In this document: positions 26 through 40,275 of the stretch, one piece after another
Numbering within the stretch: the stretch's first letter is position 1
How the letters are laid out: each line of letters opens with the position of its first letter
Source: a virus
Virus genome (UHGV): UHGV-0353264
Strand: one strand, 5' to 3'
Length of the DNA stretch: 43,216 nt
Position numbers and translations under genes: made by a program
Notes under the pieces: model-generated
Seen by the model: the letters and a program-made list of their open reading frames with translations, nothing else
Database searches by the model: none
What the model was told of the DNA's origin: nothing

Positions 26-66
26 AAAACCCCCGAACTGGTAAGGAACGGGGGTTTTACTTTTTA
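26..66. terminator. Rho-independent terminator hairpin (bidirectional candidate)
   Basis: 10-bp stem aaaacccccg (26-35) pairs with cgggggtttt (49-58), followed by a T-run (59-66). Both strands give a U-rich tail. Confidence 0.6.
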
Positions 67-420
67 ACTTTAATTTTGTGCAGCACACGATTCCAACGAA
101 AATGATTATGGATCAATTTCGTTGACCTGTACAAGCAACTTGCAATCTCTGACATAAAAAACGCGAGCCTTTACGAAGAAATCGACATTGATGAAAAGAT
201 TAACGTGACCGCTTTTTGATAAGTACATTAAAATCGGTTTCGTTATTGGCAATTTTGCTGTGCTTTACACCATGCCACTGAATTCCCCCATTGAAACGAG
301 TGGTGTCGTCAAAGCTCTGGTGTGGAGTGCAGCACTCGATTCCAATAACTCGCACGTTCAGTTTTGGGGAGATGTAAGGGCTAATCTGAACGGCTGCATT
401 CCTTGTTTAAGGAAAAACGA

Positions 421-501: not shown

Positions 502-694
502 CACAAGGAAACGTACTTAAGGTGCGTCCGGTGAACCAATCGGACGCGCCTTTAATAACTATAAATAAGTGTCTGGGCAGATACTATATAAATTAACTTA
601 GTGAATGATTATGCTAATGTCATCATTTAAATAAATATAATAGCGTTAAGATTTTTCTATAAAATAATTAACACTCTACTTCCAGAGCAGAATA

Positions 695-964
<270 letters not shown>

Positions 965-2567: not shown

Positions 2568-2764
2568 TACCGGCTGCGACACTTTTGAATAAAAGCATCG
2601 ACATTGCGGCGCTCATAACGAACTACTTTTGCACTGAAACGAATTGGTGCCAGGATAGCCCGATGACGATGCTTAATATTCCACTCACATAGCGTTTTCT
2701 GTGTAATACCTAACTTTTGGCATACTTCATCCGGGGTGAGTAAATCGTCGGGTTTCTCGCTCAT
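2564..2764 (-). CDS. AlpA-family HTH regulator / excisionase-like protein
   Basis: 66 aa, LTPDEVCQKLGITQKTLCEW HTH typical of AlpA/Xis-type proteins; overlaps integrase stop and helicase start by 4 nt each. Confidence 0.6.
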   Translation of the reverse strand: MSEKPDDLLTPDEVCQKLGITQKTLCEWNIKHRHRAILAPIRFSAKVVRYERRNVDAFIQKCRSRY

Positions 2765-4155
2765 GCTATACCTCTCTTTTTCATGGCATCGAGCAGGATG
2801 TCCTGCACTGTTCGTTTTGAGTTGCGCCGTTCCATCACCATTTCGTCCATAGTGTCGGCGGCGATAATGTGGTGAATGAACACCGGGCGGTTGTGTCCGG
2901 CCTGTATCTGCCTGGTGGGGCCGATACGTTCAATAATTTGCTGATATTGCTCCAGGTCCCACCAGTGTGAGAAAAATACCAGTATATTTCCGCCGTCCTG
3001 CATGTTCAGACCGTGGCCCGCGCTGGCTGGGTGTGCAAAGAGAACAGGAATCTTTCCGGAATTCCAGTCGCGCAGTGTCTGTGGATCCTGGTCGAGGTGA
3101 CGACCGCGAGGGAATGCTTTAAGCAAGCGTTCAAGATCGTGTTTCCAGTGATAAGCAACCAGCACAGGTGCGCCAGCTGCTTCGGTCAGTATGCTGTCCA
3201 GCGCCTGCAGTTTGGTGTCATGCAGTTCTGACCAACTTCCGGTGTCGTCTGTGTATACTGCGCCACTGGCGATTTGCAGACACTTCAGTGTCTTTGCCGC
3301 GGCGTTCGGTGCTTCGATGCCTTCGCCATTCAGCTCGAGGAACATTTCCTTTTCCATTTCACGATACTGCTGACGGGCCTTCGGCGGCATATCCACGCGG
3401 ATTACGTTATGGATGGGATCTTTGATATCGAACCAGTCGGCCGCATCCAGCGATAGGGTCACATCGGCTAACGCTCGCTGTATTTCACCCTGTGAGTGAG
3501 CAAACGGCTCCAGTTTGGTCCAGCTCTGCCCCGGAAACTGTATCGAGTTGAACCAGCGTGAGGTAAACGCGCCGTAAGTGCGTCCGAGACGTTGCCCCTG
3601 GTCCACAAACCACGCTTGTCCCCACAAATCTACCAGGCCGTTCGGTGCTGGCGTACCAGTGAGATTTATCCAGCGCCGGACATACTTATGCGCCACTTTG
3701 CCCAGCGCCGCCGCGCGCTTACCACCACCTCGCAGCCGGAAGGATTTTAGTCGGGTGCTTTCATCTGGAATGACAGTACCGAACGGCCATCGTTCTCCCA
3801 ATTCCTCAACCAGCCAGACAAGGTTATCGTAGTTGATGGTGAACACGCTCGCGTTGTTGTTCGCCAACGCTGCAGAGCGCGCTTTGGCATTACCAACAAT
3901 TGGTTGTACCTCGATATTGCGCAAATGCCCCCACTTCAGTGCTTCATCCGGCCATGTGCTGGCAGCCACGCGCAGCGGCGCGAGAACCAGCGCAGGTTGT
4001 GTTTCTGCACCCGCCATGAAGAGGTCTTCCAGCGTAGTGAGTGTCGCTACGGTTTTACCCATTCCCATACCCGCCCAGATGTTGCCGCGCAGAATGTTAG
4101 TTTGGTGATTGATTATGAGGTTTTGATAAATTCTGGGGTGGAATATGCTATTCAT
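2761..4155 (-). CDS. SNF2-family DEAD/DEAH-box helicase
   Basis: 464 aa; Walker A GMGMGKT, DExx-like box VIPDESTRLK, C-terminal helicase domain. Part of the phage replication module. Confidence 0.85.
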   Translation of the reverse strand: MNSIFHPRIYQNLIINHQTNILRGNIWAGMGMGKTVATLTTLEDLFMAGAETQPALVLAPLRVAASTWPDEALKWGHLRNIEVQPIVGNAKARSAALANNNASVFTINYDNLVWLVEELGERWPFGTVIPDESTRLKSFRLRGGGKRAAALGKVAHKYVRRWINLTGTPAPNGLVDLWGQAWFVDQGQRLGRTYGAFTSRWFNSIQFPGQSWTKLEPFAHSQGEIQRALADVTLSLDAADWFDIKDPIHNVIRVDMPPKARQQYREMEKEMFLELNGEGIEAPNAAAKTLKCLQIASGAVYTDDTGSWSELHDTKLQALDSILTEAAGAPVLVAYHWKHDLERLLKAFPRGRHLDQDPQTLRDWNSGKIPVLFAHPASAGHGLNMQDGGNILVFFSHWWDLEQYQQIIERIGPTRQIQAGHNRPVFIHHIIAADTMDEMVMERRNSKRTVQDILLDAMKKRGIA

Positions 4156-4184
4156 TAATACACCTATGGTAGAATATGGTCACT

Positions 4185-4206
4185 TCTCTCTCTCTATATA
4201 TATATA
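4185..4206. repeat. Dinucleotide simple sequence repeat (TC)5(TA)6 in the divergent promoter region
   Basis: tctctctctc tatatatatata read directly, 17 nt upstream of the ATG at 4223 and upstream of the RBS ggagg (4213-4217). Confidence 0.9.
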
Positions 4207-4222
4207 ACTAACGGAGGCGGGT

Positions 4223-5020
4223 ATGCCCCTGGCGAAAATATTTACAAAGCAAGTTTCTTTATTAACTATGTTTTCAGCGTTAGCTTATGCGATGGCATAT
4301 TATTTTCAGAAAGGTGTCGCATCGTATTATGGCTATCCAGACCTTTTTATTAAAATAGACTTAAATACGCTATTGTATTCGGCTGTGTGGCTTTTGTTTT
4401 TTAGTTTTTTATTTCTCGGCGCCTTATATGCGGCGTTGATGTTTGATTTGAAAGGAAAATATTATGTTCCATTTATTGTATTTATAGTTGTTATGCTAAT
4501 GGCTAATATTTGTATAATAGGATTTCATTGGCCTTTTGGTTATTTCTCCGAAACTTCTGTGATGAGTGTTCAGGATATTTTATTATTTGCTATGCTTTTG
4601 TTGAATTATCACAATGTGGTGTCTATGCCAATCCATAGTAAGAGACACGAACATCATATGGAGAGCATTAGAAAATTTGGGAGGCTTGCAGAGTATAAGA
4701 ACGTATTTTATTATATCGATTTAAAAATCCTAAAGTCAGCTTTTCCTTTAGGGGTGATAACGTTGTTGATATTGAGCTATACATTCGGGAAGGTTACTGC
4801 ATTTAAAAATAACGAATATTATATGGTAGATGGTAGTAATACTAAAGTGTTGCTCAATTCATTTGGTAGTGGTTTTGTTGTTGGTGATTGTGAGTCAAAT
4901 AGCGCAAAATTTGAATTTGTTAATGATTTAAAAGGGATGAGATTCACAATCATGTCCTCTAAAAAGGAAATAGCTAAATTAAAAGAGTGTTTCGAAATAC
5001 GTGTTAAAAATACGGATTAA
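4223..5020 (+). CDS. AT-rich multi-pass membrane protein of unknown function (moron)
   Basis: 265 aa, about four hydrophobic segments N-terminally and a soluble C-terminal domain; strongly AT-rich; opposite strand to flanking replication genes; good RBS. Confidence 0.6.
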   Translation: MPLAKIFTKQVSLLTMFSALAYAMAYYFQKGVASYYGYPDLFIKIDLNTLLYSAVWLLFFSFLFLGALYAALMFDLKGKYYVPFIVFIVVMLMANICIIGFHWPFGYFSETSVMSVQDILLFAMLLLNYHNVVSMPIHSKRHEHHMESIRKFGRLAEYKNVFYYIDLKILKSAFPLGVITLLILSYTFGKVTAFKNNEYYMVDGSNTKVLLNSFGSGFVVGDCESNSAKFEFVNDLKGMRFTIMSSKKEIAKLKECFEIRVKNTD

Positions 5021-5032
5021 AGCATAAGTCTT

Positions 5033-5320
5033 TTATCCTTTATTGCGGCTTAAAATAATGGCCTCCAGATTTTTGCTATCCAGCACCACTACGGTAAAGC
5101 CCAGCGCGCGCAACCGTCCGTGTTCGCGCAACTGGTCAGGCCGTGGTGGCTTGCCGGGGGATTTACATTCAACGAAAATGATACGACCGCCGGGTAGCAG
5201 AACAATGCGATCTGGTACCGAGCGGCGACCGGGGGATACGAACTTAAAGGCAACCCCGCCAGCCTTTTTTACTTCAGCGACGAGGTGCTTTTCGATTAGG
5301 TTTTCACGTTCATAGGCCAT
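5033..5320 (-). CDS. VRR-NUC domain nuclease
   Basis: 95 aa; PDRIVLLPGGRIIFVECKSPGKPPRPDQ matches the VRR-NUC D...E.K core. Confidence 0.75.
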   Translation of the reverse strand: MAYERENLIEKHLVAEVKKAGGVAFKFVSPGRRSVPDRIVLLPGGRIIFVECKSPGKPPRPDQLREHGRLRALGFTVVVLDSKNLEAIILSRNKG

Positions 5321-5514
5321 TAGCTTTCGCCTTCCTGCTTTTTGCGTTTCTTCATGCAGATAGCGCAGTTCTCAGGATGGTCATGCCATTCATCAATCCT
5401 GATACCTATGAACATCCATTTTCCGCATAGTGATATGGCTTCCCCCGAATTAAAGAAATGTGCTTTTTTTGACAGAGCGGGGAACCCCCAACCCTTATTA
5501 TCGATATTAGACAT
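5320..5514 (-). CDS. Small Cys/His-containing hypothetical protein
   Basis: 64 aa ORF in operon orientation between the TIR-like gene and VRR-NUC; no recognisable family. Confidence 0.4.
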   Translation of the reverse strand: MSNIDNKGWGFPALSKKAHFFNSGEAISLCGKWMFIGIRIDEWHDHPENCAICMKKRKKQEGES

Positions 5515-5699
5515 CGTCCACCTCCTTACGCTTTTCGCGCATGTTCTGCATCAGACAAAAATCAAACCGACGTTCGCTTTGGCCCAGACCTGCATCGCCC
5601 GGTCGTACCCGCCGGACTGTTCAAGGTGCAAAGCCTCCCGCACAGTCCGGTAATAAAGCGGACTGTCCCGGTATTTAAATGACATAGGGTTTTTATTCC

Positions 5700-5730
5700 C
5701 AAATAAAAAACCCCGCGATGCAGGGTTGTA
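5700..5730 (-). terminator. Weak terminator-like hairpin downstream of the TIR-like gene
   Basis: Minus strand reads accctgcatcgcgggg followed by tttttt; stem is short, so low confidence. Confidence 0.3.
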
Positions 5731-5748
5731 ATCAACAATAAGGGGTAA

Positions 5749-6510
5749 TTACGAGGAAGCGTTAGCTATTTGAGCTTGTGTAAATTCGAAACCAGAATTT
5801 TGTAACCGTTGCACTAGACGAGGAACTGTTTCACGTACATGGTCGTTGAAATTCAGATACAAAATCCCGTTAGCATCAGAAGGCTGTTCTAGATGCTGTT
5901 TCTGAAGGATTGCTACATTGCTGCGCCCTAAGGACGAAAGAAGCATACCCATCTCGAGTACAACGTTCTGTCTTGCGCGGGGTTGGATTTCTGCTTCACC
6001 GGCGCGCTTTGAGTATCCCATATCATCAGGTGTCAAAAGAACAATCCCGAAACGGGTAGCAGTTTGTCCTTGCCCAATTTCACGTTCAAGCTCTTCAATA
6101 ATGGTGAGTCCAGTCCCTCCCGTATTCTGCAAAATGAAATGGTCTGGTAATCCAAGTTTATGAAGGATTAGCTCAAGTTGCTCCTTTGCAGTATGGTCAT
6201 GGCCGTGAACAATGAATATCTTTTTGGGGAGCTCAGATGGCTGTTCTACGGCTAGTGGTGTTGCCGTGGGCGGCGTTCCTAAATGGGTCATTATTGCAGT
6301 TTCAACATTGGGACGTTCTTGAGGGTTACCTTGAAACTGAATGGTCCGGGTGGTGTAAAGGTTAACAATTACGCCATTCGTTAAACGATAGCAGTCACAA
6401 GTCTCACGCTGTTCGTGGGAAAAATTGGTGAACCCACACTCCCTCAAAAAGTCAGGAAAAGATTCTCTCGGGTATGGATAGGTGATCGGCATTTCAGTTA
6501 GTTCCTGCAT
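5749..6510 (-). CDS. TIR-like domain nucleotide-binding protein (PF10137-like C-terminal domain) with unknown N-terminal domain
   Basis: 253 aa; C-terminal KKIFIVHGHD...FGIVLLTPDD...ARQNVVLEMGMLLSSLGRSNVAILQK matches the TIR-like signature as recalled. Lower GC than flanking polymerase; possible own promoter (ttgata in the 64-bp gap after the polymerase gene). Confidence 0.6.
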   Translation of the reverse strand: MQELTEMPITYPYPRESFPDFLRECGFTNFSHEQRETCDCYRLTNGVIVNLYTTRTIQFQGNPQERPNVETAIMTHLGTPPTATPLAVEQPSELPKKIFIVHGHDHTAKEQLELILHKLGLPDHFILQNTGGTGLTIIEELEREIGQGQTATRFGIVLLTPDDMGYSKRAGEAEIQPRARQNVVLEMGMLLSSLGRSNVAILQKQHLEQPSDANGILYLNFNDHVRETVPRLVQRLQNSGFEFTQAQIANASS

Positions 6511-6574
6511 AAGTATTGTTCCTTTAATTTACTCGAATTCAGCATGTCGCCATAGCTCGATAAGGTGAGTTATA

Positions 6575-8638
6575 TCAATCTTTTTTGTAGTGGTACGCCT
6601 CAAAACCGCCAGCGTTCAGTGGGATATCGGGCGCCCATTCGGGGTCAGTGGAGAGAAGCGCGGAAAGCGCTTTATCGTTGAAATCTTCTGTGTCAGGTGC
6701 TTCGGTGATCACCTCGTCGTGTACCGTCAGCACAATGCTGTAACCGGCATCTTCGATAAGCGGCATGTTTCCGGCCAGAATGTCGCGGGCGGCCGCCTGG
6801 GTGATGTTCTCCACCAGCTTTCCGCCGTAGGTTTTGAGTCGTTGCCATTTACGCGAATAAGAGTTAACCCCCATGTAGGTGATATTCCCTTTTTCGATAA
6901 CCGGAGACGGGTAGCATACAGCGCGTCCTGATGGTAGCTGTATGCGCAGCCACGCGCCATCGCGGCGGATTTTAAGATAACCGCAATACAATGTTTTTTG
7001 CGGTGTGGCGATTGCAGTGCGGACGGTGCGCTCCAGTTCGTACCAGAAATCACAGGTCGCGGGATGCGCCCGGCGCCAGAGACGTTTAAGTGAGTCGCAG
7101 GCGATAAATACCCGTTCAGAAAGCCCGTAGGTTGACTTGCGTTTAACCGATTCGTCGTACCAGCTTTTCGCCTCGCGGATAACATCGCGGGGAATGTTTG
7201 GTAGTGCGGCGTTCGCCAGCTCGTCGAGATCGAGACCGTAAACCAGTGCAAAAGTGATGAAGGCCGACACACCACCACCATAACCCAGACCGAGTTCCAT
7301 GACTTTACCGATCTGACGCATGTGTTTATCAACATCATCTGGTGCAATATCGAAAGCTTTTGCATACGCCAGTTTATATAAGTCCGGACCCGTTCCGGCG
7401 TCGTACTCTCTGAATGCATTCAGTTTCCATTCTTCTCCCGCCAGCCATGCCAGCATACGGCCTTCAATGTTCGACAAGTCACTTACCACCAGCTTTTTGC
7501 CTGTTGGCGCGATAATGCAGCCACGTAACGCTGAACTGGTTAGTTCCATGATATTGTCAAACAGCAGGTCTGCACATCCGGCTTTCAGTGCTTCGATGCC
7601 TTCGTCTATTTGTTCCTGTTTTAGTGAAGGGCGGGGAAGGTTCTGGGGCTGGAATAGCCGTCCGGCCCAACGACCGGTACGTGACGCCCCGCAGAACTGT
7701 AGCGTACCGCGTAAGCGCCCGTCGTGGCTTACGCCTTTCATCAGTGCCTTGTATTTACTGGTGCTGGTAGTACTGGCCTGCAGGCGGATAGCCAGCAGTT
7801 CTTTCACGGCAGATGGTAAATCGGGGTCGGCAATACGACGTTCCAGAGTACTGCGTTGCATGTCTGGTAGCTCCACACCGTAGGATTCAACAATGTGCTT
7901 AATCAACGCGTCTCGTTGTGTGGCTGCCTGCACTTCGCCATCAGTCATTTCCTGTGTACGCTTTGCCAGGCGCTTTTGTTCCTGGTCTACCGCGTCGATC
8001 GCAGCGCGTGCGAGTTCCACGTCCATGCAGACGCCCCGGTCATTGATCTGCTGATCACGATGCCAGAGCGCCAGTTCTGTCCCCTGATAATTCCACTTCG
8101 GCAGACGTTTATAGACTTCGCGCATTGCCTCGATATCCAGTCCGGCGTAAGCAACAAAGCGCCGCCATTCTTCCGGGTGGGTTTTGCTGGTGGCTCGGCG
8201 CAGTTTGCTGTTTTTCGGGCGTGGCTTACAGAACAGCTGGATCAGCGCTTTACCTTCTTTGTCCTTCGCTTTGTCTTGCGGGACGCCTAGTACTTCGCAG
8301 AGTTCCCCCAGAGACCCCGGGAGACCGTGCGCCAGCGCCTGCACCATTGTGTCGCGCCAACGTTCGACTGGCGGTGCCAGGCGCGGCATTGCATAACGCA
8401 GAACGGTGCGGTCGAAGTGAGAGTTATGGAAATAAAGCAGGGTTTCAGGGTCTGCGATTGCTTCGTATAAGCCGTGTGGAATACCACCACCGGCAGTGAT
8501 ATCCCACACGTTTACTGGCCCGTCGTTGATAGCCCATGCGAAAAGCATCACTTCAACGCCTTCGGCATACGCATGGGTACCGTTCGTAATAGGGATTTCG
8601 CAATAGGTTTCCAGGTCGCCCCATAGTATATTGGACAT
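6575..8638 (-). CDS. Family A DNA polymerase with N-terminal 3'-5' exonuclease
   Basis: 687 aa; exo motif WGDLET, polymerase motifs [16 protein letters not shown] and [10 protein letters not shown]. Confidence 0.9.
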
Positions 8639-8684
8639 GTGTTTACCTTGGTTTTTATTCTATTAACTGATTAAAAGATTAATT

Positions 8685-9314
8685 ATGCATATGATCCAAT
8701 ACTTGATTGACCATACAGAGCATCTGGAGAAAATAGCTGGATATATTTTTTCATGTTTGATTGTTATGGGAGTCTGGATAAGAAAGATCATTTTTAATTA
8801 TAAGTATAAAGAGCCTAAATATGTTAAGAAGTTAATTTTATATTTAGTTAAGTATGAACGTTATCTGGATGAGGAGGATAAGAGTGCCATAGAAAAAAGA
8901 ATAAATGATAAAATTATTCGTGATGCGCTGAAATTGCAATCCTCTTATAACCGAAGAGATGTTATTTACATTTGCAATAGATTAGACAAAAGACAGTATA
9001 TAAATCAGTTGGTTAAGCTTCAGAATTATATAGAGAAAGATAACGGAGTGTTTTTTATTAATGTTGATTTTTCAGGTTTTTTATTTATTATTAGTCGTCT
9101 GTTTTCCTTTCTGTGTTTTGTGCTGTTTACCCTTTTTTCTATTATCTGCATTATTTCCATAGGGCAAAATGAAGGCCTTTTAAATTATCTTGTGTATATG
9201 GTTATGATAATAGTTTTAGAGACTGTTGGTTTTTGGATGTATGATACTTTCCCGTCTAAGAAAAAGATCTGTGAACTAAATAAAGAATTGAGAAAGATTA
9301 AGATTCCTGAGTGA
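8685..9314 (+). CDS. AT-rich membrane protein of unknown function (moron)
   Basis: 209 aa; one N-terminal and two C-terminal hydrophobic segments; Lys/Tyr-rich; very AT-rich; opposite strand to the replication operon. Confidence 0.55.
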   Translation: MHMIQYLIDHTEHLEKIAGYIFSCLIVMGVWIRKIIFNYKYKEPKYVKKLILYLVKYERYLDEEDKSAIEKRINDKIIRDALKLQSSYNRRDVIYICNRLDKRQYINQLVKLQNYIEKDNGVFFINVDFSGFLFIISRLFSFLCFVLFTLFSIICIISIGQNEGLLNYLVYMVMIIVLETVGFWMYDTFPSKKKICELNKELRKIKIPE

Positions 9315-9366
9315 TTATACGCCTAATCAGTAGCCCGGTGTTTAACCGGGCGTCTATGAAGTAGGG

Positions 9367-9915
9367 TTAAATTAGTGCTTCAGCATCAGCACCTTCGCTG
9401 ATATCGTCGAAATCGTCAGCGCTTGCCACTCCGCCGCCAGCGAATGCATCGCCGTCTCGCAGGAACTGGACTCCGCCGAGTGAGGCATTAATGCGTTTAC
9501 CGAAATTATTGTCCTGTGCCCAGATATCGATAACGGCGTTTACATAGCACCCTGCATAGGGACGTCCGTCAGCCTGAATAAGTGGCGAACGATCGCGATC
9601 AAGAACAGCTGGGCGCGCTTTGTTAGCAGCATTCAGGAAGAAATTACCGGGGAAGCCTTCATACTCTGCTTTTTCATCACCATCATGCAGGCACAGATTG
9701 AGTTTTTTCTCCAGCTGGTTATAAATGGGCTCCCACTTCTCTCCCCATTTTTCCTTCGCTACCTGCTTCATAGCTTTACGGATTTCTTCCAGTTGTGGGT
9801 GTTTGGGTGACATTAAAAATACTGCGGAGAAACGTGGATCGCCTTCGCCGTTTACAGTTTTAGCTTCAAACAGAGACGGGAAGGCCAGACGAACATTGTT
9901 CAGCTTCAGTTTCAT
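9367..9915 (-). CDS. Phage single-stranded DNA-binding protein (DUF2815-like)
   Basis: 182 aa; N-terminus MKLKLNNVRLAFPSLFEA and acidic C-terminal tail (DDFDDISEGADAEALI) typical of SSB; sits next to the DUF2800-like nuclease. Confidence 0.6.
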   Translation of the reverse strand: MKLKLNNVRLAFPSLFEAKTVNGEGDPRFSAVFLMSPKHPQLEEIRKAMKQVAKEKWGEKWEPIYNQLEKKLNLCLHDGDEKAEYEGFPGNFFLNAANKARPAVLDRDRSPLIQADGRPYAGCYVNAVIDIWAQDNNFGKRINASLGGVQFLRDGDAFAGGGVASADDFDDISEGADAEALI

Positions 9916-9930
9916 GGGTATTTCCTTAAA

Positions 9931-11232
9931 TCAGATGAGGTCTGCGGTTAGCGTATCGTCGGATACGTCGTCGAAATCATTTACAGGGTTGATATTGAGT
10001 GCGGGGCGTGGGTCTGACTCGGGAACGATGGTGGGTTTACCATCAGCTCGTGTTATCAGTGCCTCGACTTTTGACCAACGGCGCGGACTGGCCTTTTTGA
10101 TAAGTTTTTCGGCTTTTGTGGGGCTAATAAGTTTAAAGTCGAATACTTCTTCAGTTTTGTACCTGAACTGGTCCTTCAGAAGTGCGCGAGCTGCCTCTTC
10201 ATCACTCCAGGCCCGGTTACCTTGTTTTCCTGTTACCAGTTTAAACCCCGGTACCGGATGTCCGGCATTGAGTTCATTGTGAACCCGGTCTCGTACTGCC
10301 TTTAGCCAGGATTCAATAAAGTCGGCCTGGCTATAGATCTCCGCAAGCTGCTCAATGGTTAACAGAGGTACACGTGCGCTGGCATTGGTGATTATTTCGC
10401 TGACAGGCTTTGTCAGATCTTCAAAATCGCTGGCCGCTGTTTGTAAATGCTGCATTTTCTGGGCAGTGCAAATAGCTTTTGCTTTACAGAAGCGGCACTG
10501 TTTTTCTCCAGGTATGAAGTTTTCCAGCGGTAGTGTCTCAATGCCTTCGCATTCAGCAATATTGAGAACAAGGATCGCACTGGTTGCGGCCTCCTGTGCC
10601 CGTTCACCGAACGCCTGGAGCTCTTCCACCGTCAGAGCCCACTCTGAAACGTGGTTAAGCCGCGGCTGGTGGATGAACAGGCGCACCGTCTCGAAGTCGT
10701 ACAGCATGCTGAATTGTTCGAGCGCACCCAGAGCATACAGTTGTAGTTGCTCATTTTGTTCTGCATCAATGCGGACGCCTTTGCCATATTTCAGGTCGTG
10801 GATTTGTAATTCGCTACCAGCAATGATTATGCCGTCGGCAGTTCCGAAAGATTCTTCCACACCCGTTATATGTGAGAAATCAACACGTTGTTCAACCAAT
10901 AGTTCATTATTCTGTGCAAGAGTCCAGACCGTATCAACATACCGGCCAACGGCTTCGACCATTTCATCATCCACCTGTGGGCCGGATGTATCATCAGGAT
11001 TTTCGCGAAGGGGGTATGAGCCGAGAAACATAGAAACATTGCATCCGGCGTAGTGTTCCGGGTGGCTTTGCCTGTTTCGTAGAACTTTTTCAGCAAGCGC
11101 GTGCGCTGCAGTGCCCTCGATTGCAAAAGTTGTTTCTTTATCCGGTTGTGTGGCCTCCAGCGCCAGACTTCCTGGGCAGCGCATCCATCGATGCGCTGAT
11201 GATGGAGAAAGTTGTGCGTGAACGTCTGGCAT
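9931..11232 (-). CDS. PD-(D/E)XK nuclease, DUF2800 / Cas4-like
   Basis: 433 aa; N-terminal [14 protein letters not shown] motif and Cys cluster [10 protein letters not shown] consistent with a Cas4-like Fe-S nuclease. Confidence 0.7.
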
Positions 11233-11234
11233 GA

Positions 11235-13440: not shown

Positions 13441-14115
13441 TTAGTACATACGTAGCGCGGATTTGGCGATCCCCGCCACGTAATGGATTTTTTCAATGTT
13501 TTCGCGTGGTACTCTGACTGGTGGATGATCTTCATTTACAGACATTAGATGGAACAGGCCATCGCGTTCGAACAAGAAGGTTTTAACCATGACCTCACCG
13601 TCCCGGGTAACCACAAGTACTTCATCACCAGGAGTGTAGTCGTGGTTGGGTTCGACGATTACGAACTCCCCCTCTTTGATTCTAGGCATCATTGAATCAC
13701 CAACACATTTCAGGGCGTATGCATCTTCATCCTTTGTCGGCCAGTATATGAAACCATCACTGCTACCTACTGAATATTGGGTGTCGCTCCAAAGTCCTCC
13801 AACGCCTAGCTGAGTGTTTCCCAAAACAGGTACTTTATTAAACCTAAGAGAAATATACGTTTTTATACCTGTCGCGTCCTCTTTCTCCATTTCTTGAAGG
13901 CTCCTTTCTGCCAAGTCTATTGGTGACACGTGGAAGTAGTTGGCGATCTGCTTTAACGTTGCGTATTTCGGATCTTTCACCTCTCCTGATACCAGCCTGT
14001 GTAGCGTTGGTTGGTTCAGCTGTAACCGACGTGCCAGCTCAGTTATCGAGCTTATCTTGGCTTTGTCCATCAGGTACTTGATGTTTTGAGAAAGGATATC
14101 GGTAGTATCAATCAT
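13441..14115 (-). CDS. CI-like repressor (XRE HTH plus S24 LexA-like peptidase domain)
   Basis: 224 aa; N-terminal HTH (SSITELARRLQLNQPTLHRL), C-terminal GDSMMPRIKEGEFVIV and catalytic Lys context typical of autocleaving repressors. Confidence 0.9.
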   Translation of the reverse strand: MIDTTDILSQNIKYLMDKAKISSITELARRLQLNQPTLHRLVSGEVKDPKYATLKQIANYFHVSPIDLAERSLQEMEKEDATGIKTYISLRFNKVPVLGNTQLGVGGLWSDTQYSVGSSDGFIYWPTKDEDAYALKCVGDSMMPRIKEGEFVIVEPNHDYTPGDEVLVVTRDGEVMVKTFLFERDGLFHLMSVNEDHPPVRVPRENIEKIHYVAGIAKSALRMY

Positions 14116-14256: not shown

Positions 14257-14457
14257 ATGTCCGGACTAACACCACAAGAGATGGTCAAAAGCTTGATTGA
14301 TTCAGGGTATACCCAAAACCAAATTGCCGAAATTGCAGGCGTGAAGCAGTCTTCTATTAGTCGGCTTCTTACCGGGGTTCATTCTGACCCTCGCTTTTCT
14401 ACAGTACGTGCGATAGAAAAACTTTTTCAGGAAGTGACAGCTAGACAAAAGGTGTAA
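14257..14457 (+). CDS. Cro-like HTH regulator
   Basis: 66 aa, HTH YTQNQIAEIAGVKQSSISRL; divergent from the repressor across a 141-bp operator region. Confidence 0.7.
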   Translation: MSGLTPQEMVKSLIDSGYTQNQIAEIAGVKQSSISRLLTGVHSDPRFSTVRAIEKLFQEVTARQKV

Positions 14458-14460
14458 CCC

Positions 14461-16647
14461 ATGTCCGATAGCAAACCATGGGGCGCTACGCCTGATGAGT
14501 GGTTTCATTTCGACCTGGTATTGGGGCGGACTGCTCATCTTCTCCCAGTTGTATGTAACCCCAGTGCGACCATATCCCCTGATAGTAAATTGAAAGCGTT
14601 GGGTAAGACGCCGAGTCGCTATAACCGGGACCGCCAGGTCACCGGTATTGCTCAATGGACCGGGCATGTTGTTACTGAGCATGATTTTGCCCGCTGGTCG
14701 AATGAACCGGATTATGGCATCTGCGTGCGTACAGGCCATGGCTGGCTGGCGCTGGACTGCGATAGCGAAGATGAAGACATTCAGGCAGATATTCGCAAAA
14801 CGCTTGTGCAACTTCTGGGGGAGTTGCCGCCGCGACGCTGGCGAGCAAACAGTAATAAGTGTCTGTATCTGCTGGCCGTTGATGGTGATTTCCGTAAGCG
14901 TATCCATCGCCTGGCGGGGGATATGGGCATTATCGAGTTGCTGGCGAACGGGCAGCAGTTCGTTGCCTGTGGTACGCACAGCAGCGGCGCGCGTATTGAA
15001 TGGGACGGTGGTTTGCCGGATGAACCTCCGGCTATTACAGGTGAGCAGCTTGAAACGCTGTGGCAGCGCCTGGCTGAACAACTCCCTGTGTCGGTAACCA
15101 CCGAAGCGGGCAACACGAAGATGCGCGACCGTTCAGCATTCACGCCCGGCGCGACGGATGATACAGCTGAATATCTTGATGCCAATGGCTGGACGCTGCT
15201 GGATGGCGCAAACGGTGAACGATATATCCGCTGTCCGTTTGAAGACGGCCACAGTAGCGGAGGCGATCCAACAAGCACAGTTTATTTTCCTGCGGGAACC
15301 GCAGGCTTTGAGCAGGGGCATTTTAAATGCCTGCATGCCAGTTGCGCGCATCGTGATGACGGAGATTTCCTGAATGCCATCGGGATCCGCAACGACGATT
15401 TCGAAGATCTGACCAGCATCGAAGTGGCGGAACCTTTACCGCTGCCTGCTTTCGAGCGTGATAAATGGGGGCGTATCGAGGCAACCATCAGCAACGCAGC
15501 CAAAGCAGTAGTACGCCCTGATTTTGTGGACATCGATATTCGCTTTGACCAGTTCCGCGACGAAATCATGTTTGCCCCGGCAGGATCCGGACAATGGCGG
15601 GCATTCACCGATGCGGATTATGCGCGCCTGCGCATCACGATGGAAAAGCGGGGATTTAAACCTGTTGGCCGTGAACTTATTCGCGATGTGGTGTTACTTG
15701 CAGCCGATGAACAACCATTCGATTCAGCGATCACCTGGCTGAACGGACTGGAGTGGGATGGCGTGCCGCGCATCGAATGTTTCTACCATACGCACTTCGG
15801 TACCGCCGACACGCCTTATACCCGTGCGGTGTCTATGTACATGTGGACCGCGTTGGCGGGGCGAGTACTGGAGCCAGGCATCAAAGCGGATATGGTGCCG
15901 ATCCTCGTTGGTCCGCAGGGCTGCGGTAAGTCTTCCGGAGTGGAGGCACTGAGCCCTGATCCTGCGTTTTTTACTGAAATCTCTTTTGCCGAAAAAGACG
16001 ATGATCTCGCTCGAAAAATGCGTGGTCGGCTGGTGGCAGAGATTGGTGAACTGCGCGGACTTAATACCAAAGAGCTGGAGTCAATCAAAGCGTTTGTGAC
16101 GCGTACTCACGAAAACTGGATCCCGAAATACCGGGAGTTCGCCACCCAGTTTCCTCGTCGCCTGGTGTTCGTTGGTACCACCAATGAGGACGAATTCCTT
16201 GCGGACAAGACTGGTAACCGTCGCTGGCTCCCCGTGGAAGTGTCGAAAGTCGACGTGAAAGCGATAAAAAGAGATCTCCTTTTACTTTGGGCTGAGGCTC
16301 GTGAGGTGTTTCAGCGTCTGGGGGGTATCCAGTTCCGTGAGGCTGAACAACTGGCAGCGAGTGTCCATGAACAGTACACCATCAAGGATGCTTGGCTTGA
16401 AACGGTAGAGAAATGGCTCGACACGCCCGACCTGATGACTAATGAACTTCCGCGAAATTGCGAATTTTTACGCGCAAGTGATGTTTTGCGTGATGCGATT
16501 GGGCTAAATCCTGACCGCATCGGAAAACGCGAAGAAATGCGAATTAGTAATGTTTTGCAAAATTGCGGGTATAAGCGTGCCCAAAGGCGAATTAGGGGGA
16601 AAAAATGCAAGGTTTGGGAACCGCTGGAACCACGCGGAACCACCTAA
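14461..16647 (+). CDS. DNA primase-helicase (PrimPol N-terminal domain, zinc-binding region, VirE/D5-like P-loop NTPase)
   Basis: 728 aa; GICVRTGHGWLALDCD PrimPol-like motif, Cys/His cluster CPFEDGH...HFKCLHASCAH, Walker A GPQGCGKSS. Confidence 0.85.
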   Translation: MSDSKPWGATPDEWFHFDLVLGRTAHLLPVVCNPSATISPDSKLKALGKTPSRYNRDRQVTGIAQWTGHVVTEHDFARWSNEPDYGICVRTGHGWLALDCDSEDEDIQADIRKTLVQLLGELPPRRWRANSNKCLYLLAVDGDFRKRIHRLAGDMGIIELLANGQQFVACGTHSSGARIEWDGGLPDEPPAITGEQLETLWQRLAEQLPVSVTTEAGNTKMRDRSAFTPGATDDTAEYLDANGWTLLDGANGERYIRCPFEDGHSSGGDPTSTVYFPAGTAGFEQGHFKCLHASCAHRDDGDFLNAIGIRNDDFEDLTSIEVAEPLPLPAFERDKWGRIEATISNAAKAVVRPDFVDIDIRFDQFRDEIMFAPAGSGQWRAFTDADYARLRITMEKRGFKPVGRELIRDVVLLAADEQPFDSAITWLNGLEWDGVPRIECFYHTHFGTADTPYTRAVSMYMWTALAGRVLEPGIKADMVPILVGPQGCGKSSGVEALSPDPAFFTEISFAEKDDDLARKMRGRLVAEIGELRGLNTKELESIKAFVTRTHENWIPKYREFATQFPRRLVFVGTTNEDEFLADKTGNRRWLPVEVSKVDVKAIKRDLLLLWAEAREVFQRLGGIQFREAEQLAASVHEQYTIKDAWLETVEKWLDTPDLMTNELPRNCEFLRASDVLRDAIGLNPDRIGKREEMRISNVLQNCGYKRAQRRIRGKKCKVWEPLEPRGTT

Positions 16648-16802
16648 AAGAGAAGGTGGTTCCACCTTGCAGACCTTGTGGCAAGCGGGGCGGAACTACT
16701 GGAACCACTGGAACCGCCTTTCTACTAGAAACCCCATATATATATAAGTCGATTGAGGGAAAGGTTAGGAAAAGGTGGTTCCAGGTGGGGGCAGGTGGTT
16801 CC
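16617..16802. repeat. Iteron array, at least 9 copies of GGAACC(A/G)C in both orientations, flanking an AT-rich segment (candidate replication origin)
   Basis: Direct copies at 16617, 16627, 16637, 16692, 16701, 16710; inverted GGTGGTTCC at 16655, 16774, 16794; AT-rich stretch with (TA)5 at 16731-16758. Overlaps the primase 3' end. Confidence 0.55.
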
Positions 16803-16860
16803 ACTCCGAATTAGCAACTTTTTGCATGTTGATACATGCAATATGCGGATCGGAACTGCG

Positions 16861-16869
16861 TTATCCACA
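16861..16869 (+). promoter_or_regulatory. DnaA box TTATCCACA
   Basis: Perfect match to consensus TTATNCACA, about 60 bp downstream of the iteron array. Confidence 0.45.
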
Positions 16870-16933
16870 CCCACGGATAAACAGACGTAGTTCTCAGAAA
16901 AATTTTTCGTAGCAAAACGTAGAGGTCAGAGCT

Positions 16934-17368
16934 ATGCGTAATATTCAACAGGTTTTAGAGCGCTGGGGTGGATGGGCTGCCGATAGCAACACCACAGTGA
17001 GCTGGGCTCCAATAGCGGCGGGATTTAAAGGGCTGGTAGTCAGCAGCTCGCCTGGCAGGCTGAGTTGCTGTGACGACGATGGCCTGATTATCGATGCTTG
17101 CGTCTGTCGGCTGCAGCAGGTCCGTAAGCCTGAGGAACTGGACGTCATTATGCTGTACTACGTCTACGGGGTAAGCAAACGTGAGATAGGGCGGCGGCGT
17201 CGCTGTTCTGAAGGATTTATCCGCCAGCAGTTGCAGGTAGCAGAGGGATTCATTGAGGGGTGTCTCTGCATGCTGGGTGTGAGCCTTCAGATGGATCCTG
17301 AGGTCGAAATTCAAAGGGATGAAAAAAGTATTAGTGCGCTACGCAAAAACTGCGCTACGCTGGTATGA
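16934..17368 (+). CDS. Q: Late gene antiterminator Q (phage 82 Q-like family)
   Basis: 144 aa; N-terminus LERWGGWAAD and Cys cluster CCDDD...CVC resemble Q82-type antiterminators as recalled; followed by a terminator and the lysis genes. Confidence 0.7.
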   Translation: MRNIQQVLERWGGWAADSNTTVSWAPIAAGFKGLVVSSSPGRLSCCDDDGLIIDACVCRLQQVRKPEELDVIMLYYVYGVSKREIGRRRRCSEGFIRQQLQVAEGFIEGCLCMLGVSLQMDPEVEIQRDEKSISALRKNCATLV

Positions 17369-17647
17369 GTTGAATTTCTGACCTCAACGAAGAGCTCCAA
17401 ATCATTGGGGCTTTTTTAATGCTCTATTCTCAGTAAAAGTTAATAAAACAGGGTTTTCGTCGCGAAAAAACGCTATGCAGTTTTTGCCCTTTTTTATGCA
17501 CCTCTTATTCACTCGAATTTCGTCATTCTGGACCACTTAAGTTGATTAAATAGGCCTTTCATCGCAAATCTATTGCGAGCGGTGATCGTGTGGTTCCTAT
17601 AACGTACATTATGTTAAATAACCTTCTTTTTTAACAAATTTAACAAG

Positions 17648-17670
17648 GTTCGCTATGGCGAACTTTTTTT
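17648..17670 (+). terminator. Rho-independent terminator (tR'-like) between Q and the lysis genes
   Basis: Stem gttcgc/gcgaac, loop tatg, then T7 tract. Confidence 0.65.
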
Positions 17671-39604: not shown

Positions 39605-40020
39605 TGAATGCGTCATATGCAGTTATTGAAAATGGGATGGTTATGAATGTAATTGCCTGGGATGGCGAGGCTGAATTCACAGTGCCGGATAACCAGCAAC
39701 TCATTAATATTTCTGATATCAGTGAGCAGCCTGGAATCGGCTGGGCGTATTCCGATGGTGTATTTTCTGCACCGCTCCCACCAGAACGATCTCACGATGA
39801 ACAGGTGGCTGATGCTGAACACCAAAAACAGTCGATGATTGATGCTGCAATGGTCAATATCAGCGTGATTCAGTTAAAGCTGCAGGCCGGGCGCAAACTG
39901 ACGCAAGAAGAAACTACCCGACTTAACGTTGTGCTGGATTATATCGACGCTGTGACGGCAACAGATACCAGCACTGCACCGGATATTGAGTGGCCGGATG
40001 AACCGTGCTTCGCTGAATAA
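39604..40020 (+). CDS. Putative tail fibre assembly protein
   Basis: ATG at 39604 overlaps the fibre stop (TAATG) with RBS gaggag; 138 aa. Confidence 0.45.
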   Translation: MNASYAVIENGMVMNVIAWDGEAEFTVPDNQQLINISDISEQPGIGWAYSDGVFSAPLPPERSHDEQVADAEHQKQSMIDAAMVNISVIQLKLQAGRKLTQEETTRLNVVLDYIDAVTATDTSTAPDIEWPDEPCFAE

Positions 40021-40221
40021 AATCTGTTGAGAAGTGGTTTAATTGTATCTCAATTATTTTTGAGTAATAAAAGTAGGACAAAGCTGAGACAAATAAAGCC
40101 TCGCAATGGTTGCAGGCTTTGAACACTTCTATATTGAGTATGTGACGTGGTTTTGTTTATTTACATTCTATATATTGATCTCAATTTTTATGAATGTAGA
40201 GCATACGGATAAACCGCAGTG

Positions 40222-40258
40222 TGATTAGAGTCAAGGTAATAACTGTTGACTCTAATCA
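40222..40258. repeat. Perfect 13-bp inverted repeat (tgattagagtcaa / ttgactctaatca) with 11-nt spacer
   Basis: Read directly; sits between the tail-fibre operon end and the acyltransferase stop. Terminator or protein-binding site. Confidence 0.5.
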
Positions 40259-40275
40259 TTGCAAAGTAACTTTAT

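Follow-up and report, generated by a model that had tools for sequence, protein, structure and literature searches.

Iterons beside a primase-helicase gene as the probable replication origin of an Escherichia coli prophage

Introduction

Here, we analysed an array of repeats located around the 3' end of a primase-helicase (Pri-Rep) gene in the virus sequence UHGV-0353264 (43,216 bp; this whole stretch of DNA is called the window in the following), an integrated tailed prophage of E. coli adjoining yfhL. The closest described systems are the replicons of the Staphylococcus aureus pathogenicity islands (SaPIs), whose Rep proteins are self-loading superfamily 3 (SF3) helicases that also act as initiators via a C-terminal winged helix; no further loading factor is known for them, and in SaPI5 primase and Rep are fused (PMC9371898). 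The SaPI iterons, 6–12 in number, are short, recognised by the winged helix and located immediately 3' of the rep open reading frame (ORF), and the origin (ori) displays an AT-rich centre flanked on either side by two or more iterons, the two sets facing in opposite directions (PMC9371898). The same pri-rep-ori organisation was described for phage-inducible chromosomal islands (PICIs) of E. coli, and one pri-rep-ori segment was found to drive plasmid replication (PMC6092414).

Based on the comparison with these systems, we regard positions 16597–16841 of the window as the replication origin of the prophage, a Pri-Rep-ori replicon of the SaPI/PICI type, and put the probability of this reading at about 0.8. 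It draws on four observations made in this study, namely the array itself, its conserved layout, the homology of the encoded protein and the co-variation of protein and repeats. While this kind of system is already known from SaPIs and PICIs, its presence in a complete enterobacterial prophage lineage is new, as is a natural series of loci linking five residues of the winged helix to the iteron sequence. An early-gene module is common to this lineage, Yersinia phage YeP4 and the APSE phages of aphid symbionts (PMC8579659), and the literature searched described no origin for the module shared by YeP4 and APSE. The reading would thus identify where and how replication starts in a widespread group of enterobacterial prophages.

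Pri-Rep is related to the SaPI Rep proteins

The domain organisation of Pri-Rep, from an N-terminal primase domain to a C-terminal winged helix, is given in Table 1. Among its homologues, residues D99, D101 and H173 as well as the Walker-A residues G487, K490 and S491 are invariant. A profile built from 16 homologues and compared with the PDB retrieved a single relevant structure, 7PDS (7pds_A, E value of 3.6e-46, profile positions 374–668), which is the complex of SaPI1 Rep1 with DNA (PMC9371898). The SaPI replicons (Rep1 of SaPI1 and PriRep5 of SaPI5; PDB 7PDS, 7OLA) thus encode a homologous SF3/VapE helicase, and it is because of this protein homology that we grouped the window replicon with the SaPI Rep type. 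A fusion of primase and helicase, as in the window protein, is also found in PriRep5 of SaPI5. Further shared features are the C-terminal winged helix, the iterons directly 3' of the ORF, the AT-rich centre with opposed iterons and the specificity of each Rep for its cognate ori.

Several differences were also noted. The host is Gram-negative, and the element is no satellite but a tailed prophage of about 40 kb with its own PolA. The iterons of the window are 9-bp units instead of the penta- or hexanucleotides of SaPIs, and an additional upstream block (>>> <) overlaps the end of the ORF. In regard to the C-terminal domain of Pri-Rep, no sequence match to that of Rep1 was detectable, the profile match ending at position 668. 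Likewise, Pfam revealed no match for the C-terminal c. 90 aa, Foldseek against the PDB gave no match at E ≤ 0.001, and NCBIfam contained no family for Pri-Rep. The winged helix was recognised in an AlphaFold2 model, in which the third β-strand comprises aa 714–721 with a predicted local distance difference test score (pLDDT) of about 84–88. Its recognition helix (REEMRISNVLQNCGY) is nearly invariant among relatives and may read the constant 3' part of the iteron.

Organisation of the repeat array

The motif GGAACCRC occurs 11 times in the window, while dinucleotide shuffles (n = 100) gave a mean of 2.58 copies and in no case reached 11. Eight of these exact copies are concentrated within 16617–16802 (plus strand: 16617, 16626, 16636, 16701 and 16710; minus strand: 16656, 16775 and 16795), where about 0.01 would be expected per 186 bp by arithmetic from the shuffles; the other three are isolated single copies, in line with a chance expectation of about 2.6. 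Together with two degenerate copies in register, GGAACTAC (16692–16699) and GTGGGGGC (16785–16792), at which relatives carry perfect copies, the array comprises ten repeat positions with a 9-bp repeat unit, TGGAACCAC. An initial annotation of this region had reported at least nine copies of GGAACC(A/G)C; the array is real, but the number of exact copies is eight. The probable ninth copy of that annotation, GGAACTGC at 16852, lies outside the array, as it remains unchanged in relatives whose iterons all differ.

The repeats are arranged in an upstream block A and in two blocks, B-left and B-right, that are oriented towards an AT-rich centre from both sides (Table 1). As described in the initial annotation, repeats in both orientations extend over the end of the primase gene: the first three cover the final 31 bp of the ORF (14461–16647), where they encode the tail EPLEPRGTT, so that the final nine codons of the annotated gene are iterons read as protein and the annotation should be corrected in this respect. 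In block A, a perfect 10-bp inverted repeat spanning the stop codon is formed by the third direct copy and the inverted one, and a 28-bp spacer separates block A from block B-left. At the positions of B-left and B-right, relatives such as L002 and L054, respectively, possess three perfect or full copies. The AT-rich stretch, correctly annotated as bracketed by the repeats, is 57 bp long with a GC content of 35–37% (0.35–0.375 in 40-bp windows). Its (AT) tract at 16736–16747 is the least stable 15-mer between 13,000 and 18,500 (top 0.02%), which points to it as the melting site, i.e., a DNA unwinding element (DUE). Thus, the homologous helicase, the fused primase, the winged helix, a number of iterons within the range of 6–12 and the AT-rich centre with opposed iterons, by which a SaPI/PICI-type replicon is recognised, were all found in the window.

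Based on these features, initiation may be envisaged as follows. Transcription of the pR operon (cro, then Pri-Rep) would provide the fused primase-helicase, whose C-terminal winged helices would bind the 9-bp iterons in the upstream block (>>> <) and in the opposed blocks (>>> and <<<) around the 57-bp centre. Binding would lead to melting of the (AT) tract, followed by self-loading of the SF3 helicase, priming by the N-terminal Prim-Pol domain and extension by either the family-A polymerase of the phage or the host replisome. The specificity for the iterons would mainly reside in five residues of the last β-strand of the winged helix (K-C-K-V-W in this case), and this strand would be exchanged jointly with the entire array, in a single cassette of c. 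245 bp.

In regard to the tail following the wing, its length varies, with other classes possessing only 3 aa, and because of this variation it is probably dispensable. In L037 and L086, one iteron fewer is present at the 3' end of the gene, and the shifted frame adds 17 aa past the wing (EPLEPPKREGGSTLQAL). Just past the last iteron of the window, a perfect palindrome was identified (16822–16841); relatives retain its TTGCA...TGCAA ends with different spacers.

The layout is conserved while the iteron sequence varies

For comparison, we compiled 24 loci from GTDB genomes, 80 loci from IMG/VR and the isolated Yersinia phage YeP4, all of which encode a relative of Pri-Rep. Relatives were found in Salmonella, Enterobacter, Klebsiella, Xenorhabdus and others as well as in YeP4, which displays the same arrangement of gene and array. 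In 71 of 79 non-redundant loci, an (AT)n tract is flanked on its left by two or more direct copies (within 60 bp) and on its right by two or more inverted ones (within 90 bp), the commonest layouts being >><>>>|AT|<<< and >>><>>>|AT|<<. The pattern of block A, >>(>)<, also appears in relatives with other iteron sequences, and in nearly all relatives the array occupies the same place relative to the Pri-Rep gene.

The sequence of the 9-bp repeat itself falls into at least 11 classes. Cores identified in relatives are GGAACCAC, GTAACCAC, GTTACCAC, GTA(A/T)CCAC, TAGACCAC, (A/T)AGCCACC, GTACCAAC, GTCCCAAC, TAGACAAC and GTAACAAC, and more distant loci revealed GTGTAGAA, GTCACCAC, ACTTAACC and GAGACA. 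An alignment of seven classes showed an almost invariant 57-bp centre, with all dispersed iteron copies altered in concert. Concerted change of this kind, with the spacers conserved, would be expected if all sites had to fit a single co-evolving binding protein.

Homologues were also detected on plasmids from Serratia and Yersinia that are small (12.9 and 14.7 kb) and non-mobilizable and for which no other rep gene is annotated. They harbour a VapE-only homologue with 38% identity over the helicase and the C-terminal region, followed by about ten repeats (Table 1). The VapE gene and the array are likely the replicon of these plasmids, which suggests that this protein family together with a downstream array can form a complete replicon.

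Co-variation of the wing and the iterons

The wing motif of Pri-Rep (aa 713–719) has the general form G-K-x-x-[KR]-[VIAL]-[WFY], and its variable residues map almost 1:1 to the iteron class. The wings KCKVW, KSKVW, KCKLW, KRKVW and KCKIW are found with GGAACCAC; MTRIF, VTRIF and MVRIF with GTACCAAC; KMRIF with GTCCCAAC; VQRVW with GTAACCAC; LMKVW with GTTACCAC; QQRVF and QQRIF with TAGACAAC; QIRVW with TAGACCAC; SQRVY with GTAACAAC; and MTKAW with AGCCACC. The purity of the iteron class given the wing was 0.96–0.97; the value of 0.974 compares with permutations (n = 5000) that averaged 0.47 and never exceeded 0.59. As controls, purities of only 0.49 and 0.45 were obtained for the iteron class versus the cro type and the type of the downstream gene, respectively, and one and the same iteron class was combined with as many as six unrelated cro types, and with either Q or unrelated downstream genes. 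The specificity of a Rep for its cognate iterons is hence seen computationally, by purity and controls.

Pairwise comparisons gave the same picture. Some proteins, e.g., those of L093 and L040, show no difference in the 140 aa preceding the wing (100% identity), yet their wings and iterons differ; conversely, pairs with only 59–60% identity before the wing share a similar wing and the same iteron core. Where the wing ends with W, position 7 of the iteron is C (eight classes, including a mixed one); where it ends with F or Y, position 7 is A (four classes). In two matched contrasts the 5' half of the iteron remains constant, namely QIRVW/CTAGACCAC versus QQRVF/CTAGACAAC and VQRVW/TGTAACCAC versus SQRVY/CGTAACAAC. 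Since the wing residues are not encoded by the iteron sequence, the correlation is no coding artefact: in the window, the overlap of the wing with the first iteron is limited to the final base of the W719 codon, and in other classes the first iteron starts 7–10 nt past the wing.

A comparison of the window with L040 at the nucleotide level revealed that identity is lost at the codons of G713-K714 and regained near 16841. The exchangeable cassette of about 245 bp thus holds, besides the codons of wing and tail, only the iterons with their centre and a short segment at the right. Recombination breakpoints were found many times directly flanking this wing-plus-array unit on both sides, and never within it.

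These data bear on the possibility that the array is the site of another protein, i.e., a pac site for the terminase, a partition centromere or a recombination site, and adjoins the primase gene by coincidence. Repeat arrays in both orientations are known at pac sites and centromeres, and the gene for the terminase small subunit is located about 2.3 kb downstream of the array. The iteron class, however, follows five residues of Pri-Rep and varies independently of cro and the downstream module, all copies change together with conserved spacers as expected for a co-varying binder, the cassette encodes only wing and tail, and the prophage has no annotated par genes, so that we consider a site of this kind highly improbable.

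Returning to the Pri-Rep-ori replicon, the five wing residues could form a compact, largely modular recognition code, with W pairing with C and F or Y with A at position 7 and the first two wing residues tracking the 5' half of the iteron; swaps of the cassette would then have given rise to at least 11 specificity types in nearly identical enterobacterial prophages. This more specific proposal is a tentative one, for which we see slightly less than even chances. If it is true, the types would represent replication 'specificity groups' comparable to immunity groups, one genome could hold two related prophages of different types, and analysis of the recognition code would also locate the origin of the early module of the APSE/YeP4 type. 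Proteins differing only in the five wing residues, each with its own iteron, offer a ready system for studying how a winged helix reads DNA, and the natural series also lends itself to the study of replicon specificity and incompatibility evolving by cassette exchange.

Two loci in one genome were observed twice: Xenorhabdus yunnanensis XENO-10 harbours L010 (GKSQRVY/GTAACAAC) and L011 (GKVCKVW/GTAACCAC), and IMG 2837389702 harbours L077 (GKQIRVW/TAGACCAC) and L079 (GKKCKIW/GGAACCAC). Both pairs are consistent with co-residence of different replicon specificities. In L054 and L066, which share the wing GKVLKVW, a single array mixes GTAACCAC and GTATCCAC and may represent an intermediate of relaxed specificity.

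Taken together, the homology to SaPI Rep1, the layout and the co-variation of the wing speak for the initial suggestion of an iteron origin that would be bound by the C-terminal domain of the primase. A number of points weigh against it. Binding by Pri-Rep, melting, self-loading and priming are deduced from comparison and homology. The wing codons lie 0–10 bp from the first iteron, so that linkage alone could explain part of the association. GC skew, at scales of 40 bp and 2 kb, showed no switch at the array, a measure confounded anyway by the direction of transcription, and both block A and the palindrome at 16822–16841 are left unexplained by the origin model.

The DnaA box belongs to the Q leader

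The perfect DnaA box TTATCCACA at 16861–16869, reported in the initial annotation as following the repeats, is indeed present, and it is the only match in the window to the relaxed box TTWTNCACA, for which 4.3 matches would be expected. Its distance to the last iteron is 59 bp. By analogy to many iteron plasmids, host DnaA bound there could cooperate with the iteron-bound initiator in a DnaA-assisted origin, and given its position and its status as the sole relaxed box, chance is not a trivial explanation for it. The comparison with relatives, however, placed the box in the leader segment of the downstream antiterminator gene Q, which recombines independently of the array: from about 16841 on, L040 matches the window at every position, GGAACTGC and TTATCCACA included, though all of its iterons read GTACCAAC. 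A sister Q leader (L067, L054) reads TTACCCACG at the position of the box, and the whole leader segment is replaced where the downstream gene is other than Q. A perfect box was found in 20 of 91 related loci and is missing within 420 bp in the other 71, of which 60 have no box at all; in the window, it is a single box and no cluster. Moreover, SaPI-type Reps are reported to need no extra loading factor (PMC9371898). As it lies in an independently assorting leader and is missing in most loci, the box falls outside the conserved origin design and, judged by these comparisons, is probably not part of the origin, contrary to the initial annotation. With no conserved box forming part of it, the locus does not resemble a DnaA-dependent iteron origin. 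A DnaA-assisted origin is therefore unlikely, and the box is unsuited for calling this origin, though its being the only relaxed match against 4.3 expected leaves room for an accessory role specific to this lineage.

Further repeats were observed in the Q leader (16861–16930), namely a TTATCC-N8-GGATAA inverted repeat overlapping the DnaA box and three (A)CGTAG motifs, i.e., the direct-repeat pair D5 (16885–16898 and 16917–16930) and a CGTAG at about 16907. They could represent a regulatory or RNA element for the expression of Q.

Transcription and regulatory signals around the array

The array lies largely in the gap of 286 bp between the Pri-Rep gene and Q, within the pR transcript, and a scan of 13.3–18.2 kb for promoters and terminators found none on the plus strand in this intergenic region. 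The region 16600–16700 folds with −37.3 kcal/mol (z = −2.98), forming a stable RNA or DNA hairpin from the inverted pair at 16636–16663. It could therefore be asked whether the repeats serve regulation instead, either as a roadblock or autoregulatory site for the winged helix or another protein acting on pR read-through into Q, or by titration of Rep, all the more so as plasmid iterons often have control functions too. Against this, the array stays with the Pri-Rep gene where the downstream gene is not Q, and it is also found in small plasmids without Q; the conserved AT-rich centre with opposed repeats is origin-like and would be unnecessary for a roadblock, and the hairpin lacks a U-tract, its arms being iterons. 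We thus regard a purely regulatory site as quite unlikely, even more so than a DnaA-assisted origin.

Some further candidates in this region were rejected. A structured RNA was dismissed, as an Rfam scan of 16300–17100 gave no match at E ≤ 1 and the hairpin consists of two convergent iterons without a U-tract. The sole intergenic 'terminator' called on the minus strand is the iteron palindrome. By eye, the palindrome region at 16810–16850 was also considered as a promoter for sigma-54 or sigma-70, but the spacing did not fit and this reading was abandoned. No match to the IHF consensus WATCAANNNNTTR was found within the origin region. Downstream, a terminator-like hairpin with a T-run was noticed at 17645–17666 (plus strand), about 280 bp 3' of Q, and is probably the Q-antiterminated late terminator tR'.

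Comparison with other replicons

Apart from SaPIs, the PICI EcCICFT073 resembles the window in its host species and in two sets of iterons around an AT-rich region after pri-rep (PMC6092414). It is set apart by description, as its Pri-Reps were reported to be distantly related to P4 α (PMC6092414), whereas the window protein is of the VapE/Prim-Pol kind, and by the nature of the window element, which is a phage and not a PICI.

The initial annotation had likened the repeats to the binding sites of the P4 α protein. As an analogy, this is justified: α is a multifunctional primase, helicase and origin binder, its 8-bp type-1 repeats (TGTTCACC) occur in both orientations, its ori consists of three direct, one inverted and two direct copies (>>> < ... 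>>), and according to the P4 record crr follows immediately after the α gene. Homology, in contrast, was not supported. The best BLASTP hit between α and Pri-Rep had an E value of 0.71, and the domains differ (Zn-ribbon, Toprim, D5_N, DUF5906 and Pox_D5 in α; Prim-Pol, VapE and winged helix in Pri-Rep), the only overlap in Pfam being a sub-threshold DUF5906 match in Pri-Rep (24.2 bits versus a cut-off of 27.6). P4 also depends on ori and crr, two cis elements set apart from each other, while the window contains one cluster. At the level of sequence, P4 α/ori is thus analogous and not homologous, and the window replicon does not belong to the P4 type.

The origin of phage lambda lies in the pR transcription unit and has iterons within gene O with an AT-rich region after them. 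The window shares the succession of iterons and AT-rich region in the pR unit as well as lambdoid immunity and control by Q. It differs in that the initiator is itself helicase and primase and in that most iterons lie outside the gene; no genes of the O/P type were found between cro and Q, the single gene there being Pri-Rep, so that the locus is not of the lambda type. According to its published description (PMC4234260), ORF904 of the archaeal plasmid pRN1 likewise combines a Prim-Pol domain with an SF3 helicase, and an essential cis region is located directly 3' of the gene.

Genomic context of the prophage

Among the genes are those for an integrase, for Q and for lysis, a lambdoid cI/cro pair and a full structural module of the myovirus-like kind. 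Since it carries genes for terminase, portal-like, head, tail and baseplate proteins besides those for lysis, the element of about 40 kb is a complete prophage, in contrast to a PICI or phage satellite, i.e., a small, helper-dependent island without virion structural genes. The region 16400–17000 shows 99.8% identity to E. coli IAI1, and among 5,426 complete genomes of E. coli it was matched in 140. Compared by Blastn with 50,697 phage records, the intergenic region had no match, and Megablast of the wider region retrieved only the primase of YeP4-6 and partial matches to E. coli phages. The features described in this study are listed in Table 1.

Table 1. Features of the Pri-Rep-ori locus, of its surroundings in the window and of the related plasmid arrays (nucleotide positions refer to the window unless a locus is named; aa, residues of Pri-Rep)
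Feature	Position	Strand	Remarks
Replication/recombination genes	~2760–11233 (= L001 6363–14834)	−	Leftward early operon: DEAD/DEAH helicase, VRR-NUC, family-A DNA polymerase, DUF2815, DUF2800
cI	13441–14115	−	
cro	14257–14457	+	
Pri-Rep gene	14461–16647	+	728 aa
Prim-Pol (archaeo-eukaryotic primase, AEP) domain	aa ~48–185		PF09250, E 1.8e-10, 41.9 bits (cut-off 22.8)
Cys/His zinc-type motif	aa ~258–295		
VapE/SF3 helicase	aa 427–639		Pfam VapE PF05272, 2.3e-60; PHROG 'DNA helicase/primase'
Winged-helix domain	aa ~641–721		AlphaFold2 model, H-H-H-β-β topology
Wing motif G713-K-K-C-K-V-W719	16597–16617	+	β-3 of the winged helix; left edge of the exchangeable ori cassette
Iteron-encoded tail	aa 720–728		
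Block A	16617–16663		Three direct (16617–16624, 16626–16633, 16636–16643, +) and one inverted copy (16656–16663, −)
Block B-left	16692–16717	+	Three tandem 9-bp units, GGAACTAC (16692, degenerate), GGAACCAC (16701), GGAACCGC (16710); oriented to the AT-rich centre
AT-rich centre	16718–16774		57 bp, CTTTCTACTAGAAACCCCATATATATATAAGTCGATTGAGGGAAAGGTTAGGAAAAG
Block B-right	16775–16802	−	Inverted copies 16775–16782 and 16795–16802, degenerate GTGGGGGC 16785–16792; oriented back to the centre
Right end of cassette	16803–16841		Palindrome TTGCATGT-N4-ACATGCAA (16822–16841); diverges along with the iterons, window versus L040
GGAACTGC	16852–16859	+	Q-leader module, outside the origin cassette
DnaA box TTATCCACA	16861–16869	+	Q-leader module, outside the origin cassette
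Antiterminator Q gene	16934–17368	+	3' neighbour of the array; Pfam Phage_antitermQ, 9.8e-51
Plasmid array	L108 2990–3340; L109 6060–6350		About ten repeats of the TGTTCCACCCG or GTGTCACA type, oriented both ways and flanking an AT-rich stretch, 3' of the VapE gene

Two further observations concern the remainder of the window. The GC content decreases to 0.34–0.37 at its right end (40001–43216), compared to about 0.50 elsewhere, and this segment may represent tail-fibre or accessory cargo or the boundary of the prophage. In the early-left operon, a gene for a TIR-domain protein (~5750–6511, minus strand; L001 9351–10112) is located between the polymerase and VRR-NUC genes and may be a prophage-borne defence gene.

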